Notes under the pieces: model-generated
What the model was told of the DNA's origin: nothing
What the model saw: only the letters and a program-made list of their open reading frames with translations
The model's database searches: none
Shown: positions 8,099 to 33,132 of the stretch, in pieces
How positions within the stretch are numbered: position 1 is the first letter of the stretch
Layout of the letters: every line of letters begins with the position of its first letter
Source of the DNA: a virus
DNA length: 64,000 nucleotides
Reading direction: 5' to 3' (one strand)
IMG/VR virus record: IMGVR_UViG_3300031992_000005
Coordinates: 192,001-256,000 of that record
Made by a program: the position numbers and the translations under genes

Positions 8099-8506
8099 AT
8101 GAATAAAACAGAGATAGTTGAGAAAATTCAGTCAAAGGTTGATTATAAGGTCGGAGATTGGGTTGAAACATGTAATTTTCTCCCAGGCATAGTGCAGAGC
8201 ATTGACATAGGGTATGTCAAGAGAGATGACTATGTGAAAGATGTAGTTGAGATATTTTACCCTCATATGGCTTTTGACAAGAAATATAATGGGAAATATT
8301 GTGGAGGAAGTATTTGTTCCGCCGATAATTGTGGAATACATAAAATCACTTCAGAATATGCCTGTAAACTCATGGCATTGGGTTATGATAGACTTAGTAA
8401 TCTTTGGGAAAGAGCTTGTGAATATTGGAAAACTGATGATAAAAAAGCATGGAAGGATTTTGTAGAAGAAGAGTATAAAAAAGTATTTGAAAGAGCAGAC
8501 CAATAG
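8099..8506 (+). CDS. hypothetical protein
   Basis: 135-aa ORF. Confidence 0.55.
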   Translation: MNKTEIVEKIQSKVDYKVGDWVETCNFLPGIVQSIDIGYVKRDDYVKDVVEIFYPHMAFDKKYNGKYCGGSICSADNCGIHKITSEYACKLMALGYDRLSNLWERACEYWKTDDKKAWKDFVEEEYKKVFERADQ

Positions 8507-8525
8507 TGGCTCTGCTTTTTATTTT

Positions 8526-8550
8526 TCCCTTCAATGCCTTAATAATAAGA
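8526..8550 (+). promoter_or_regulatory. promoter motif (class 1 variant)
   Basis: TCCCTTCAATGCCTTAATAATAAG, about 45 nt upstream of ATG 8594. Confidence 0.45.
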
Positions 8551-8593
8551 GATAATTAAAAATAGTATTAACTTTTTAAAATCAAAAAAAAAA

Positions 8594-9001
8594 ATGAGTG
8601 ATGTTAAATTTGGTAGGCAGAAAGGAAATCCAAATGTTGATGATAAGGTAATCATCCGAACTCAAGAAGCTAGAATAAGAAGTCTTGAGGAAAAGCTCGA
8701 GGCTAGTGAAAGAAAAAATAAAACCCTACAGGATGTAATTGATAGGTATCAAGAACACGACAAAAGGCAAAAAGAGATATTCTACGAAGGAACTCTAAAA
8801 AATGCCGTTGACTTCCTATTAAAGTCAATTAAGAGTAAAGAGGAGAACTGTCGTATTATCCTAGACGAGACTAATCAAATGATTAATCTAAATAGCTCTT
8901 GCAGAGGAAAAATTCGAAGCCTGATCAACTACTTAACAAAAACCAGGCTGAAGGAAGAAACTCTTTTAGAGAAACTTCAAGCAATGCTAGAAAATTCCTA
9001 G
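8594..9001 (+). CDS. hypothetical coiled-coil protein
   Basis: 135-aa ORF rich in charged heptad-like sequence. Confidence 0.55.
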   Translation: MSDVKFGRQKGNPNVDDKVIIRTQEARIRSLEEKLEASERKNKTLQDVIDRYQEHDKRQKEIFYEGTLKNAVDFLLKSIKSKEENCRIILDETNQMINLNSSCRGKIRSLINYLTKTRLKEETLLEKLQAMLENS

Positions 9002-26298: not shown

Positions 26299-26301
26299 AT
26301 G

Positions 26302-26390
26302 AAAAAAAAAAAGAGAATCTATCCATCACGAACTGATCCTCTTCAGAGTAAAATAAACATTACACGTACATATATAAGGCATTTAAGGGG
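26302..26390 (-). ncRNA. ORF-less promoter-to-terminator unit (sRNA candidate)
   Basis: The - strand reads CCCCTTAAATGCCTTATATATG, then about 26 nt, then AGAGGATCAGTTCGTGATGGATAGATTCTCT, then T11. Confidence 0.45.
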
Positions 26391-26393
26391 TAT

Positions 26394-26493
26394 AAAAAAA
26401 ATGACCGACTCATCACGAGCCAGCCATTGAATAATTTTTGAACTTTTTTTACCCAAGAAAAATAAGTACTTTCATTTATAAGAATTTAAAGGG
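26394..26493 (-). ncRNA. ORF-less promoter-to-terminator unit (sRNA candidate)
   Basis: The - strand reads CCCTTTAAATTCTTATAAATG, then about 45 nt, then AUGGCUGGCUC GUGAU GAGUCGGUCAU. That helix has 11 bp with three G.U pairs, so it is valid only on the - strand. T-run follows. Confidence 0.45.
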
Positions 26494-26497
26494 ATTT

Positions 26498-26533
26498 GAG
26501 AAAATAGACCAGCCCCACATTAAAGGCTGGCCC
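26498..26533 (-). terminator. terminator downstream of the polymerase last exon
   Basis: The - strand reads GGCCAGCC tttaatgtgg GGCTGGTC followed by T-rich sequence. Confidence 0.5.
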
Positions 26534-26545
26534 ACAGAATTAATA

Positions 26546-26935
26546 TTATAGTCGGTGAAACCTAACGGTCACCTTTGATACATCCATCGATATAGAACAA
26601 CCATTTTCTAAGATTGTTCTGTAATATGGATCTTCAATCATCTTCTTTTCTGATACTAGCTCTTCCCTAGTCTTATCACATTCACACCTGATACTAGGGG
26701 AATTCATTAATTTGTCATAAATTAATATAAGATTACTAGCAGGACCAGAAAATTCTATCGTATTTTTGTCTATCTGCGTTAATGGACATGCAGATTCATA
26801 TCCATATCCACACAAAAGATCAAACAGTAACTTTATCTTTGGCCCAATAGTTGCACAATAATCCGTATATTTTTCATCATAATATGCCCTAATATCAAAT
26901 ATGTGATCTATTGGAATAAGATTAGTATTAGAATC
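26546..26935 (-). CDS. DNA polymerase, family A (PolA) - exon 4
   Basis: Begins GAT TCT (DSNTN..). Joined to exon 3 it gives ..IITVH|DSNTN, which is motif C (vHDe). In-frame to TAA at 26546-26548. Confidence 0.7.
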   Translation of the reverse strand, partial: DSNTNLIPIDHIFDIRAYYDEKYTDYCATIGPKIKLLFDLLCGYGYESACPLTQIDKNTIEFSGPASNLILIYDKLMNSPSIRCECDKTREELVSEKKMIEDPYYRTILENGCSISMDVSKVTVRFHRL

Positions 26936-27237
26936 CGTTCTCTTCACATAAATTCGCTACATTTATGCCGGGCAATGCCACAGCTAATCATCTCTGATTA
27001 GACGAGACTATATCTTCAGTAAATAATTACTGCCTACTTTTTCGAACACCCATCGCTTGTGCTCTACTCTACTCACTTCTTCAGGTTTCCCCTATGCTTT
27101 CGATAGTCGTTGAATAAGTTTATAACTTACTGCTGATTGACTCTATTCATTGGATTTTTACTTCTATTCGATAGTACCAATGACCTAACAAGTTGTTCCA
27201 GCAATTAAGTAGGTTTATAGTGCACCATAAACTAACA
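26936..27237 (-). mobile_element. group I intron 3 (302 nt, ORF-less)
   Basis: The - strand carries P AATTGCTGGAA (27196-27206), Q AATCAGCAG (27130-27138), R TTCAACGACTATCG (27101-27114) and S AAGATATAGTCT (27005-27016). The 5' exon ends in U and the intron ends in G. Confidence 0.75.
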
Positions 27238-27637
27238 ATGCACTGTAATAATAGGTTGTAATGGTTGCTTCCAACCATCTTTAATTGATGACCTAATATT
27301 ATTAAAGAATCCACTAGCCATAATTGTACTAGTTCCTCCTTGAATAGGTAAATTTACACCTAATCTTTTGATTCTGGCAATTATATTTTGCGCTTCTTTT
27401 TGATCTTTTGCTTTTGGCAAATATTCATAATACTCCCTTAACCTTAATTTGTCTCCTAACATGGTATTAATGTAACCATCATGATCTAATGGATACTGAC
27501 CCTGAGACTCCACATATTCCCTGAGCTTTGGAAAAGACTTATATAAACTCTGGATAATATTCTCAGCTTCTTCAACAGAACTATCTAGTCGAGCTGCTAA
27601 GGAATTTTTCCCTAAGCCGTACAATACACCCAAGAAT
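27238..27637 (-). CDS. DNA polymerase, family A - exon 3
   Basis: FLGVLYGLGKNSLAARL (motif B, K..NFG..YG), NLPIQGGTS, ends ..ITVH. Confidence 0.75.
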
Positions 27638-27932
27638 CATTACTACTCATAATTTCTTATGAGATTAGACTATATCATTATCCGATTATTCGGATAGGTT
27701 GCACTTCGGAATAGAGAATTTCACTCTAAACCTACTCCTCGGTTAAAATTATTTTAACGTCATAGGATAGTCGTTACACTTTCTTAGACTAATCTAAGCT
27801 TAGCACGGTATTGGCATATCTTATTATTAAGACTTAGCTTTCCACCGTTAGCACTAATAAATTAGTACACCCTAGATTTCTAGGTTCACAACCTTTTCAT
27901 TAACTAATTACTTAGTTATGCCACATCTATCT
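27638..27932 (-). mobile_element. group I intron 2 (295 nt, ORF-less)
   Basis: The - strand carries P AACGGTGGAAAG (27838-27849), Q CCAATACCGTGC (27803-27814), R GTAACGACTATCC (27765-27777) and S GATATAGTCT (27667-27676). P1 guide GTGG pairs with exon CCAU. The intron ends ..GTAATG. Confidence 0.75.
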
Positions 27933-28146
27933 ATGGTCTTGAATTTCTTTCTATAAGTCTTTTGTTCTTTTTTACTAAGGTTATTCCAACCTTCTTCACC
28001 TAAATATAGTTTCGAACTATATATGTATATGTCTTCTCCAGCGTTGAACTTACTTATTAGATCAGGATCCAAAGACGCGTCAATTTTGTTATCCTTAGAA
28101 CTTTTTATTTCTAAGTTCAATTGATTCTTAATTCTCAATTGTTCAG
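27933..28146 (-). CDS. DNA polymerase, family A - exon 2
   Basis: Starts CT GAA CAA TTG AGA. With exon 1 this gives ..YFDINSEQLRI (motif A, DYSQIELR-like), then GEDIYIYSS (DIH..TA) and RKKFKTI. Confidence 0.7.
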
Positions 28147-28414
28147 CATATATTTTCACCCTATTAGATAGGGTGGGGAACACTCGTGGTAGGATTATTC
28201 TATTCGTCACCTACTATGCGTTACACTACTAGGATACCTTTAATATTATCTTAGTTAGCACGGTATTGGCATCTCAGCTTTCACCGTTTTTGCTCCCTGT
28301 ACCCCGTAATATTACTATTACGGTGGGCAATTTTTTACCCCGCGCTCTTACAGATTGTTACCCTATAGGCTTTTTATCCTATAGTTCTATGGATTCATTT
28401 TATCCATAGCTCGG
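28147..28414 (-). mobile_element. intron-like unit A (268 nt), third element stacked at the motif-A site
   Basis: Starts CCGAGC, ends GAAAATATATG. P/Q-like block AAAACGGTGAAAGC..CCAATACCGTGCTAAC is identical to unit B and related to intron 2. I found no clear P1 guide. Confidence 0.5.
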
Positions 28415-28615
28415 CATATATTTTCATCCTAGATAACTAGGATGACGGACACTCGTGGAGAGATTATATTTATTCACTCTCTATGCTCTACACTACTTAC
28501 TTAACCTTTCGCAATTTAAATAAGTTAGCACGGTATTGGCATCTCAGCTTTCACCGTTTTTGCCCGTTTATTATCACTTACATTACTATAAGTGACGGCT
28601 AAATTTTAACCTCGG
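28415..28615 (-). mobile_element. intron-like unit B (201 nt), second element stacked at the motif-A site
   Basis: Starts CCGAGGTTAA, ends GAAAATATATG. GGTTAA could pair with exon-1 TTAACU once intron 1a is removed. Same P/Q-like block as unit A. Confidence 0.5.
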
Positions 28616-30154
28616 CACTACTACATTGTGTTCAGGAGGCACGTTACATCTCCCGGTTCTCACTTAGCTAAAACTAAGATGAACTCCTACATATCTCTAT
28701 GCAGATCAGACTATATCTTAATCTCATTTCTGAGATTCTTACCGTTTCCACTTAACGATTTCAAGTGTACTCCCATTACTGGGATAGTCGTTGGGGTTTA
28801 AGAATTTAATCAGTTAGTCGGGCTGATTTTCTTTTATTTTTTGAATAAGGACATTACTGTCTGTAATTACTTCAGTGAAATATCCATATTTTTCGTAAAT
28901 TTTTATTTCATTAGTGAAATATAATAATGGTATATTATTTTTCTTAGCATAATCGTACTTCAGATGATCCCTTTTTATAGCAATTTCTGAATAACGTTTA
29001 TCGTTAGGATCAAAATGTTGACACCCATGATACTCTACTAAGATATTATATTCTGGTAAATAAAAGTCAAACCTAAGATGTGATATATTCTTTAAATCTG
29101 GGTAAGTTTTCTCAGATGTAAATTCAATATTATTTCCCGTAAATAGGTCTGCCAAAAATAGTTCCCCATTAGAGTTAATGAGCGGGAATATGCTATCTTT
29201 ATCATCATCAGATAATAATAAGAACCTATAATAGCAATTACGAAATCTTCTATAAAAATCCTTCCTAGATAGGATATTATTGTCAGCAATAAATACCTTA
29301 AAATCTTCTACCGTATTAATATTAGAGTAATCTCTATTATTGTTTGGTAATAGACTTTCTTTCTCCTCTTTAGATAAGAGTCTACTAAATCTGCAATATA
29401 CTTGCTCAAATCTACGACAAAGATCTATTCTGGAGGTTATATTATTTTCTTGAATAAATGAACGAAAATCCTCATATGTATTTATATACGAATAATCTTT
29501 TAGCATACTAGGGAGAATTCTATTTTGATCTTCACTACTCAATTTAATAAACTTATTATATCCTCCTCGAAATCTTTTTTGAAAATCATAACGGCCTACA
29601 ATTTCGTATGTTTTAATGAATTTCCTAAAATCATCCTCAGTATTCAAAGTAGAGTAATCTGCCTTTTTTATAGTTCCTTTATAAGGTAAAATAGTTTCTT
29701 GCTCTTCCTTTGATAGAAAGTTTAAGAACCTAAGATAAGCCCCAGGATATTCAGTATGTAATGTTTTTCGAGAGTGAATATTATTAGTTTTAATAAACCT
29801 TTTAAAGTCGTTTGCAGTATTGAGATTAGAATAATTACCTAAGTTCGAAGGCAGTAATTTTTCTTGTTCATCATTACTTAATTTCTTGAAGCAATTATAA
29901 ACCTTTCTATACTCCTCTCTCAGCCTAGACCTCTTCTCAATACCATTATCTTTTATAAATTTTTTTATTTCCTCATAATCCATTTTTTTTTTAAATTTTA
30001 ATTTTTTTCGTTCTTCTTAAACCTGCTGATTAACTCTATTCCCTAGATTGTTACTGCCGTGACTAAATCGGCTAGTACTAGAGACCTAACAAGTCTTTCC
30101 AGCATTTAGTAAGTTTGTTTTTCATAAGGTCACCCTTATGTGACACTAGTTTCT
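28616..30154 (-). mobile_element. group I intron 1a (1539 nt) carrying a homing-endonuclease ORF
   Basis: The - strand carries P AAATGCTGGAAAG (30095-30107), Q AATCAGCAGG (30022-30031), then the ORF, then R AACGACTATCC (28782-28792) and S AAGATATAGTCT (28708-28719). Follows exon-1 U30155 and ends in G28616. Confidence 0.7.
28814..29983 (-). CDS. intron-encoded homing endonuclease (PD-(D/E)XK / Vsr-DUF559-like nuclease with 5 N-terminal repeats)
   Basis: Five repeats of about 55 aa ([DN]YS.[LI]NT..DF..FI..N.I.SR....R[FY]...Y..F..LS..E[QK]..[IL]LP). C-terminus HLRFDFYLPEYNILVEYHGCQHF. Sits between Q and R of the intron. Confidence 0.65.
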   Translation of the reverse strand: MDYEEIKKFIKDNGIEKRSRLREEYRKVYNCFKKLSNDEQEKLLPSNLGNYSNLNTANDFKRFIKTNNIHSRKTLHTEYPGAYLRFLNFLSKEEQETILPYKGTIKKADYSTLNTEDDFRKFIKTYEIVGRYDFQKRFRGGYNKFIKLSSEDQNRILPSMLKDYSYINTYEDFRSFIQENNITSRIDLCRRFEQVYCRFSRLLSKEEKESLLPNNNRDYSNINTVEDFKVFIADNNILSRKDFYRRFRNCYYRFLLLSDDDKDSIFPLINSNGELFLADLFTGNNIEFTSEKTYPDLKNISHLRFDFYLPEYNILVEYHGCQHFDPNDKRYSEIAIKRDHLKYDYAKKNNIPLLYFTNEIKIYEKYGYFTEVITDSNVLIQKIKENQPD

Positions 30155-32828
30155 AGTTAATGTCAAAATATGTTAGTAATTGGTCATCCCCACCATATAT
30201 GATATTTCCATTTTTGTTCCGAATTGGAGCAGGAATTAAGCAATTTTTGACAGGGCTATGTGAGGGAATCGTATGAAAACTTGATGACCAGCGTTTACTT
30301 GATTTTTTGAGTACTTCGTATGGAGTAAAATTCTTCTTTACTGCTCCTGGTTCATCCGGATCTGCATCTCTAATTGGAATATGATGCTCATCTTCAATTA
30401 CCCATTTTGCCCTCTTATTAAACATTCCATCTGGACCTACATACACACTTAACATTTTCGCATGTTTCTTATATATGAGGTAGTTGAGTGTGAATTTTCT
30501 CATAAAGTAGAAATCATTACTGAGATCTACCTCAGGATCAAATGGGCTTTCATAATTTAAGTAATCACCCTGATACTCTGGAAAAAGTTGTGTTTGTGTG
30601 TTAAATCCAAGAAAATCTGTCCAAATTTCCTTTACTTTATCTGCGGTTTGATATAAAACTGTCTCTACACCTTTCACACTAACTTTTTTTCCAAGTTTAG
30701 GGCTACCATAAAATTCGAATGCTAGGTCAAATACTTTCTTCGGGTATAATGGGCTTTCGTATTCGCCATTACTGTCATAATACTTTTTCCATTCATCTAA
30801 CATTTCTTGATAACCTTCATCTATATCAGTAATACCTCTACTTGAATAGAATTTTGTTGTCTCAGGTAACTGCTGGATACTTTCTGACATGGCAGCTAAG
30901 AAAGCAGTTTTTCCTTTAAGTCCAGGAATGATAGGATTAACCATCATATCATATACGATTTTATCATTCTGTTCTGGACTAAGACACATGAAATAATTAT
31001 CAGATAGAAACTTAGAATACTCCAAGAGATCCATTTTCTTACCAAAGATATATATTTTCTCTGGGATATTATGAATATCCTTAAGCTGTTTTTTATTTAT
31101 TTTTTCCAGCTCAGTATATATCTTTCGATAATACATGTATTTCTCAAGTTCTATATGCTTCTTATTAATCTTTCCCTCTGAATCAAATTTAAGACTATCA
31201 ATTCCGAAGAGATGTATTGTTTTTTCTGCCAGGACCCCTAAGAATTTCTTTTTCCTAATAATACCTTCGTCGATCTTACCCTTTAACTTAACTTCGCTTG
31301 CAGCTTGTCTAACAAAATCTACGAATTTTTCTCCAAAGTCCTGTCCATATTTCATAACAAGTCCTCCCTCATTTAATCCAGTTTCTGTTGAATCTAGGTA
31401 ATCGAGATTACTTGTTAAGATATATTTTAAGATTTCAATTATATTACCTTGAAAAAAGTTTCCTTCTTCCAATAGTTTTACAGCAATTGGCTTATATCTC
31501 TTTATATTAGTAGCCAAGGATTGATGTTTTTGCATCTTTATCCAACAAAGAGCTCTAGTTGCCCAAGTACTAGACCAAGCCATCATCTCCTTACAATACT
31601 TTTCAAATCTAAGTCTGAATGGCTCATCTATATAGTGGCCATGTGACATAAGTCTTGCGCCAAGTCTCAGGTTATCTAAGAAAACGTTGAAACACTCTTC
31701 TGTATACTCAGACTTTTTCTTAAGATAAATCATAAGAGTATAGAATGAGTCAAGGCAGCAATACTTTCCTAAGATTTCACTTGGGATAGGCATGAATTGA
31801 TTTCCCCAATACTCTAAGATCAGTTCCTTAAATTCATCTTCATATCCAGGATATCTCTTACAAATTTCTCCCCATTCAGGAGTATTTGTAAAGTTTTCTG
31901 GGGTTACTTTTAATTCTAGGTGAATGTCCTTCTTAAGTTTACCAACTTCCTCCAATAGCATGTGTTCAATTAAGTCACTAAGTCTATCGAAGTCAGAATC
32001 CCAAACTTTCACACCAAGTACTCTTTGAGCAGTCCATTTGAGAGAGTAGTTCTTCTCATGTAATCCATCTAGTACATTAACGACGGATGCATCTGATAGT
32101 TCATATAAGTCAACTCCCATTATTCTATGACTAACCTGATACTCGAATTGTAGGTTATAAGTCCAGATATGTTTCATTCTCTTAGATAGAAATTTTGCCA
32201 GTTTATCTAAGACTGCCCTATACCCTTCACTAGACTCTCCTACTTCATGTCTCAAGTCCGTTAAGCTAATAAAAGCCGCTTCTTTTGCTGTAGATATTGC
32301 AAAACCTGATACAAAGAACACTTTCTCCATTGGCATTCCACTAGTTTCATAGTCAAATCCAAAGTCAGTGTCCAATGGTAATGAGTCTACGTAATCAAGG
32401 AACCTCAATGCATCAGTCACAGTGTGAATTACGCACCACTTGAAATCATGGTAATCAACCTCTCTTGTAAAACTTGGACTTATAAAGTCTTCTAAGAGAC
32501 CTGGAATCAATGCCTGTTGTACATCTACTGCACATCTAACATAAGCTCCGCCTTCTAAGGATACTCTATAAATTCTGGAACAATCGAAGTAATTTTCACC
32601 ACGAATACCAAAGTGATACCTTTCTCTCAGGTAACTGAAGGCTTTAGCGCCAATTAATAATGCACCATCCCCTTCACCAAGTGCAAGAAGATCATTTCTT
32701 TGTTCTTCGTCCATCTTCTCTAGAAGTTCTAGAGGATAGACTCCACAACTTAGTTTTAATCCATATAATCCCACATAATCGTGGCATTCTTCTGAACTAA
32801 CTAAAACTATCCTTTTATTCATAATCAC
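30155..32828 (-). CDS. DNA polymerase, family A - exon 1 (3'-5' exonuclease plus N-terminal polymerase part)
   Basis: 891-aa ORF with FGFDYETSG (ExoI), NLQFEYQ (ExoII) and YCCLDSFY (ExoIII). Ends ..LLTYFDIN at the start of motif A. T30155 of the in-frame TAG is taken as the last exon nt. Confidence 0.75.
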
Positions 32829-32840
32829 TAAAATTTATAT

Positions 32841-32863
32841 TACAATAGTAAGGATTTTCGGGC
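32841..32863 (-). promoter_or_regulatory. promoter motif (class 2) for the polymerase
   Basis: The - strand reads GCCCGAAAATCCTTACTATTGTA. Confidence 0.5.
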
Positions 32864-33132
32864 AATATATCTGAGAAAATATTGTTTCTTTTTCTATCCC
32901 CCAAACGCCTTACTCAAGTAAGCCGTGTTTAAATACACGATTTTAATCATACACTTTCATAAGAAAAATTAGAGAACATGAAGAGAAGTTTAATAAAAAA
33001 TTCTAAGATGGTATGAATATAGTAAAATATCATGCGATCTTAGTCAACAGTCCACCATACCCCGGAACTAAATAGAGAGGGGTTGTATGGTGTAGGAAAT
33101 TGTGACTAAGAACTTTTTGTTTAATTTAATTA

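Follow-up and report, generated by a model that had tools for sequence, protein, structure and literature searches.

Group I introns have been described in several groups of phages that bear on the locus analyzed here. In the Jug (jumbo gut) phages of Bacteroides and Phocaeicola, with genomes of 360-402 kb, a genome carries about 18.5 group I introns, the genes that are often split include terL, nrdD and that of the DNA polymerase, endonucleases occur both stand-alone and inside introns, and splicing has been confirmed by metatranscriptome mapping (PMC12880540). The orf142 gene of Staphylococcus phage Twort contains three group I introns, of which introns 2 and 3 are highly similar (IA2) and flank a 23-nucleotide (nt) exon, and it undergoes exon skipping (Landthaler and Shub 1999, as related in PMC10136302). 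SPO1, Bastille and other Bastillevirinae carry IA-type introns in conserved polymerase motifs, with up to three per gene and many of them containing endonuclease open reading frames (ORFs), and their polymerase genes are also reported to include a small exon flanked by introns on both sides (PMC11878797). The locus studied here is polA, a family-A DNA polymerase gene on the minus strand at 26546-32828 of a 64,000-nt stretch (the window) that comprises bases 192001-256000 of IMG/VR record IMGVR_UViG_3300031992_000005. This record is a complete virus genome of 353,025 bp with direct terminal repeats, from a jumbo phage (353 kb) of the sheep gut. We consider it very probable that the gene consists of six exons cut by five group I introns, that its spliced mRNA encodes a polymerase of 1211 amino acids (aa) and that the introns are selfish elements. 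Positions are those of the window unless stated otherwise, and all features of the locus lie on the minus strand.

The locus shares with the Jug phages, as these are presented in PMC12880540, a huge gut phage genome, split nrdD and polA genes, an intron-borne endonuclease and metatranscriptome support for splicing. It differs in its source (sheep gut), in its genome size (353 kb) and in a polymerase that is about 54% identical, the comparison being one of the polymerase and the shared traits only. Intron-less polymerases encoded on IMG/VR contigs of 367-401 kb are 54% identical to P0002, the uninterrupted homolog that we used to place the exons. Three tandem introns with micro-exons of 15 and 14 nt in motif A are not described in the main text of PMC12880540. 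The likeness to Twort orf142, as summarized in PMC10136302, lies in several group I introns within one gene and in two similar, paralogous introns around a very short exon; here, however, there are five introns, the micro-exons measure 15 and 14 nt and the gene is that of a replicative polymerase. Introns in conserved polymerase motifs and a tiny exon between introns are also shared with the Bastillevirinae (PMC11878797), from which our locus differs in phage lineage and host, in its higher intron density and in an endonuclease that is Vsr-like and not HNH or GIY-YIG. The locus is a dense instance of known phage-intron behavior and leaves the known picture of phage introns unchanged; the sources just cited already describe group I introns for Jug-type phages and short exons flanked by phage introns (Twort). 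It is of value chiefly for its revised gene model, for proof from RNA and for a graded series of intron occupancy, and it documents, with RNA support, three group I ribozymes at work in nature within 29 bases of coding sequence at an active-site motif.

Exon model of the polymerase gene

The complete genome contains one match to DNA_pol_A and no match to a family B or Pol III alpha polymerase, so that polA encodes the sole recognisable replicative DNA polymerase of the phage. An earlier reading of the window, made from its letters alone (the sequence-only reading), had described an 891-aa ORF that stops inside motif A, followed by three shorter ORFs, and all four are present in the ORF list (30153-32828, 27908-28210, 27232-27633 and 26546-26947). 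The 891-aa ORF ends two codons past the catalytic Asp of motif A. The ORF at 27232-27633, which corresponds to exon 5, is the sole one of the four that reaches Pfam DNA_pol_A (52 bits; cut-off 34.3). A protein search returned more than 300 homologs of the polymerase, many of which end near residue 883 like the 891-aa ORF while others are uninterrupted and 1175-1211 aa long; one relative, P0001, is 97% identical. The Phage GenBank collection contained no close relatives of the polymerase or of the region.

Exons were placed by tblastn with P0002 (1211 aa, 68% identical) and compared with assembled contigs of three RNA runs (X4, X6 and X10) and one DNA run (X3), all from sheep gut, that were mapped onto 26300-32900. 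Residues 2-890 of P0002 fall on the long ORF, residues 900-948 on 28078-27932, residues 949-1081 on 27636-27238 (84% identity) and residues 1082-1210 on 26935-26549 (71% identity). For roughly nine motif A residues tblastn gave no placement; they are encoded by two micro-exons, 28623-28609 and 28350-28337. The joined model has 3636 nt and 1211 aa with zero internal stops, and its product aligns without gaps over all junctions with more than 20 full-length uninterrupted homologs, through YFDISSAEVKSAGYASLDPDL, KFKTIFLGVLYG and ITVHDSNTN. Motifs A (Asp), B (K..YG) and C (HD) are intact in the spliced product, and the columns that are invariant in 20 homologs are all kept. A profile of the polymerase family matches Taq, Bst and Klenow with E values of 1e-10 to 1e-15, and in these alignments FDISSAEVK is placed on FDYSQMELR.

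Exon 1 (E1, 30160..32828) covers the N-terminal and exonuclease parts of the protein together with the polymerase domain as far as the motif A Asp and ends in ..YFD plus AU; besides the ORF and tblastn, it is supported by an RNA contig that spans 32817-30158 with zero mismatches. The listed start codon is GTG at 32828; homologs begin two codons later, at ATG 32822, which is the better fit, and with that start the product may have 1209 aa and not 1211. Micro-exon E2 (28609..28623, 15 nt) supplies the last base of the Ile codon, S S A E and two bases of a Val codon, fits the homologs without a gap and is present in RNA contigs. Micro-exon E3 (28337..28350, 14 nt) supplies the last base of that Val codon, K S A G and the first base of a Tyr codon, as indicated by the homolog alignment and the X4 and X6 RNA contigs. 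Exon 4 (E4, 27933..28080, 148 nt), placed by tblastn and RNA contigs, begins with the last two bases of the Tyr codon and runs through ASLDPDL.. to ..KFKT plus AU, the start of motif B. Motif A is thereby assembled, in homologs and RNA contigs alike, from exon 1, the 15-nt and 14-nt micro-exons and exon 4. Exon 5 (E5, 27238..27637, 400 nt) extends from FLGVLYG of motif B to ..ITVH and is defined by Pfam DNA_pol_A and tblastn, and exon 6 (E6, 26546..26935, 390 nt with the stop codon) extends from DSNTN.. to the C-terminus and was placed by tblastn.

Two other versions of E2 were considered and rejected. A 12-nt version with one Ser fewer is in frame, but the RNA contigs hold both Ser codons, and an alternative 15-nt micro-exon at 28662-28648 fits neither the homologs nor the RNA contigs and sits in the 3' terminal hairpins of the first intron. 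Gene callers give an 891-aa truncated protein plus fragments for this locus, and the correct 1211-aa polymerase can be recovered only by modeling the micro-exons.

Group I features of the five introns

The sequence-only reading had proposed that group I introns interrupt motifs A, B and C of a family-A polymerase gene, and this proposal is borne out by the DNA_pol_A match, by the Rfam group I model RF00028 and by the joints in RNA. All five of the 5' splice sites follow a U, which forms a U.G wobble in P1, and the exon part of P1 measures 3-7 bp; all five introns end in G, and a P10 of 3-4 bp is present in I1, I2 and I4. The first three introns, I1, I2 and I3, are packed into 29 coding bases of motif A. 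Intron I1 (28624..30159, 1536 nt) contains an endonuclease ORF, has P1 UGACAU/GUGUCA and P10 UAGU/ACUA, ends in the G at 28624 and is supported by RF00028 and by RNA contigs of X4 and X6. The remaining four have no ORF. Intron I2 (28351..28608, 258 nt) has P1 GGU/GCC with a 3-bp extension and the terminal G at 28351, on the evidence of RF00028, covariation and RNA, and intron I3 (28081..28336, 256 nt), with P1 GGGU/GCCC and the terminal G at 28081, was defined by its alignment to the I2 family and by RNA. Intron I4 (27638..27932, 295 nt) lies inside motif B, with P1 CCAU/GUGG and the terminal G at 27638, supported by RF00028 and an RNA joint in X4 and X6. Intron I5 (26936..27237, 302 nt) lies between the His and the Asp of motif C, with a P1 of 7 bp and the terminal G at 26936, supported by RF00028 and an RNA joint in X4, X6 and X10.

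An Infernal search with the Rfam group I model had been proposed as a check, and when it was run on the region alone RF00028 (gathering score 50 bits) matched all five introns, with E values from 1e-14 to 0.5. The match to I5 (26984-27262) reaches 63 bits and exceeds the gathering score; those to I4 (27646-27892; 49.6 bits, E 9e-11), to the 3' half of I1 (28687-28889; 38 bits, E 2.8e-7) and to I2 (28387-28618; 38 bits, E 2.8e-7) follow, and in the last of these the model's U.G is placed at the I2 5' splice site. The match to I3 (28118-28346) has just 17 bits, and all helices of I3 are kept in the alignment with the I2 family. The core elements quoted by the sequence-only reading are aligned by Infernal to the P4', J6/7-P7 and P7' positions of RF00028. 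A pass over the whole 64,000-nt window at the Rfam gathering threshold returned tRNAs alone and none of the five introns, despite the 63 bits of I5 in the region-only search; routine annotation would miss all five. Extra helices between P7 and P3' in the Infernal alignments suggest that the introns belong to subgroup IA.

The introns are related to each other in pairs: I2 and I3 are 76% identical over 216 nt and are paralogs, and I1 and I5 are 74% identical over 95 nt. Covariation was examined for the I2/I3 family, in an alignment of I2, I3 and seven introns from the I2 site of relatives. The family consensus extends from P2 to P9.1 and has 65 pairs once the P7 pseudoknot is added; 97.8% of cells are paired, compensatory change occurs in 43 of the 65 pairs, and P7 shows A-U to G-C changes in three sequences. 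None of 500 shuffles reached the observed values, and slid controls paired at most 45% of cells. The covariation thus gives strong support to the predicted group I fold of the I2/I3 type. A capacity for self-splicing is predicted for all five introns from their group I features.

Splicing in gut RNA and alternative explanations

In X4 and X6, RNA contigs connect 26935 with 27238, skipping 302 nt (I5 out), and 27636/7 with 27932/3, skipping 295 nt (I4 out), and they link 28080 to 30158 through 27 intervening letters. When these 27 letters are reverse-complemented, they read as E2 minus its first two bases, followed by E3, and because the two missing E2 bases are identical to the continuation of exon 1, the mRNA is exactly the predicted one. 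All five joints occur together in both RNA samples, and X10 RNA shows the same architecture in a close, slightly diverged relative. In the X3 DNA run there are zero joints, and the contigs read through the introns. The six exons are precisely joined in gut RNA, both micro-exons included. Twort shows exon skipping, according to the account in PMC10136302, whereas no exon-skipped forms were present in our RNA contigs; contigs drop rare variants, so this is no evidence of their absence. The ends of X4 contigs at 28623 and 28351 were considered as splicing intermediates and dropped because contigs cannot show the ends of molecules.

Some points weigh against the reading of polA as six exons joined by group I splicing. 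Compared with RF00028 on its own, I3 scores 17 bits, and I1, I2 and I4 stay under the Rfam gathering score. Protein-free self-splicing of these introns is a prediction, and so is the proposal that the five excisions run independently and in any order. The RNA evidence consists of assembled contigs and not of raw reads, the three RNA studies may stem from one campaign, and RNA libraries can contain DNA. Together with the intron-less DNA alleles seen in relatives (L027, L009-L025), this last point allows the joined forms to be read as DNA from a coexisting strain that shares the exons exactly but lacks the introns. We regard such a source as quite improbable: the X3 DNA run yielded no joined form, the joined RNA contigs have zero mismatches to the exons of the window while intron contigs occur at other depths in the same runs, the co-occurrence of all five joints in two samples argues against it, and no I1-less DNA allele closer than 79% identity was found.

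Splicing of fewer and larger pieces is less probable still. The sequence-only reading had arranged the gene as four exons and three introns, with 30155 joined to 28146, exon 2 starting at 28146 and motif A restored as YFDIN-S-EQLRI. The ORF at 28210-27908 does exist and its EQLRI resembles the QIELR of Pol I motif A, but the homologs read DISSAEVK(A/S)AG(Y/F)AS here and leave no room for an extra 22 residues, what would be a single intron contains two additional RF00028 matches, and the RNA contigs link 28080, not 28146, to exon 1 by way of two micro-exons. The EQLRI stretch is non-coding and lies inside the 3' part of I3, the real exon starts at 28080, and three introns lie between 30160 and 28080. 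The homolog alignment and the RNA contigs refute the four-exon arrangement, to which we assign hardly any probability. The other two junctions of that arrangement, 27933|27637 and 27238|26935, are exact in the homolog alignment and joined in the RNA contigs; as for its count of at least three and possibly five splicing events, the dependence on RNA splicing and the upper guess of five held. Least probable of all, and refuted in practice, is a split polymerase whose pieces are translated separately or joined by an intein without RNA splicing: the nrdD of this phage does contain an intein, but 15-nt and 14-nt exons are impossible as polypeptides of their own, stop codons abound in the polymerase frame of the intervening sequences, these sequences match group I models, not intein domains, and the RNA is joined.

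Endonuclease, related loci and possible origin of the introns

The ORF of I1 (28814..29983) encodes 389 aa and is looped out of the intron structure, with P4'/P5' on one side and J6/7-P7 on the other. According to PHROGs, AlphaFold and Foldseek, its product would consist of five helical repeats of about 55 aa each followed by a C-terminal Vsr-like nuclease domain. The C-terminal 120 aa match phrog_9084 'homing endonuclease' (5e-19) and phrog_7140 'intron encoded nuclease', and sequence searches of Pfam and PDB gave nothing useful. The AlphaFold model has a pLDDT of 89.6, and with it Foldseek retrieved Vsr (1cw0/1vsr) and I-Bth0305I (3r3p) with a probability of 1.0, the TM-score for I-Bth0305I being 0.73 on the target; the weak E values (0.0075 to 0.12) reflect a query that comprised all 389 aa of the model. 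Residues D306, E317, H323, D339 and K342 are invariant in 41 homologs and fit a nuclease site, as judged without residue mapping onto Vsr or I-Bth0305I. The predicted nuclease domain matches the fold of I-Bth0305I (PDB 3r3p) from Bacillus phage 0305phi8-36, which is likewise intron-encoded; there is, however, no detectable sequence similarity between the two, and the five N-terminal helical repeats are present here. The I1 product is likely a homing endonuclease. Its homologs number 82, mostly on contigs of large phages. Members of this family range from 223 to 633 aa through a varying count of the helical repeats of about 55 aa before the nuclease domain, and these repeats may form a modular DNA-binding array.

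We compared 100 loci from IMG/VR and metagenomes. The polymerase gene is uninterrupted in 47 of them, some on contigs of 367-401 kb that fit the published size of Jug phages. The remaining loci have insertions at no fewer than 12 sites, between residues ~846 and ~1122; over all the relatives the number per locus ranges from none to seven. I1 alone occurs in L003/L008/L092 and L076, I2 alone in L072, L066, L067 and L089, and I1 plus I2 with the same 15-nt micro-exon in L004/L021, L083 and L094. Orthologs of I1 sit at its site in L003, L004 and L002, orthologs of I4 in L003 and L004, and orthologs at the I2 site in seven relatives. None of the relatives fetched has an intron at the I3 site, which is occupied here alone. 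The loci form an occupancy series of no intron, I1, I2, I1+I2 and I1+I2+I3, useful for studying how selfish introns build up at conserved sites and how close, similar introns avoid exon skipping.

Several of these loci have features of their own. The polymerase gene of L007 (5384-10120) has seven gaps, and two RF00028 matches in it (8269-8528 and 8557-8832) are only about 28 nt apart, so that micro-exons recur elsewhere in this polymerase gene family. The uninterrupted DNA allele of L027 and the L003/L008/L092 genes, which have three insertions, encode near-identical polymerases (97-99%; P0002 was also compared), and this looks like a recent presence/absence polymorphism. L003 also has a 136-nt insert (8403-8538, shared by L008 and L092) that lies one codon further downstream than the I5 site and separates the Asp codon from the Ser codon; the base before it is U, its last base is G and it carries P4-, P7- and P9-like elements, with no Rfam report. 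L001 has similar inserts of 140-142 nt. The L003 insert looks like an unusually small group I intron.

We propose that the introns are selfish mobile elements that would have accumulated at conserved sites, and that each would fold as a separate ribozyme that finds its 5' splice site by a P1 of 3-7 bp ending in a U.G wobble. Each micro-exon would be long enough to offer separate bases to the P10 of the intron before it and to the P1 of the intron after it, and the five excisions could therefore run independently and in any order. Skipping of E3 would shift the reading frame. In a tree of the I2-type introns, I3 falls within the diversity of the I2 site, beside the clade that contains the window's I2 (support 0.85), and the target sites of I2 and I3 both end in GGU; from these two observations we infer that I3 may derive from the I2 lineage as a copy that switched site, having taken up a similar GGU target 14 nt further downstream. 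We advance only tentatively, as a doubtful possibility, that such an ectopic copy moved these 14 nt, most simply by reverse splicing, and that the requirement for five splicing events might act as a gate on the production of polymerase. If true, the I2/I3 pair around the 14-nt exon would be a natural system for site switching and for the avoidance of exon skipping.

Other parts of the same genome, outside the window, contain comparable elements. The nrdD gene (anaerobic ribonucleotide reductase; positions 158500-163650 of the genome, L101) is also in pieces: its locus includes a LAGLIDADG-domain intein, an ORF of the LAGLIDADG type and two or more group I introns (RF00028, 39.8 and 35.2 bits), and a copy resembling I2 lies in this region at 161646-161824. 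At genome positions 96505-96644 there is a weak RF00028 match (27.8 bits), with 46 nt at 85% identity to the 3' part of I1.

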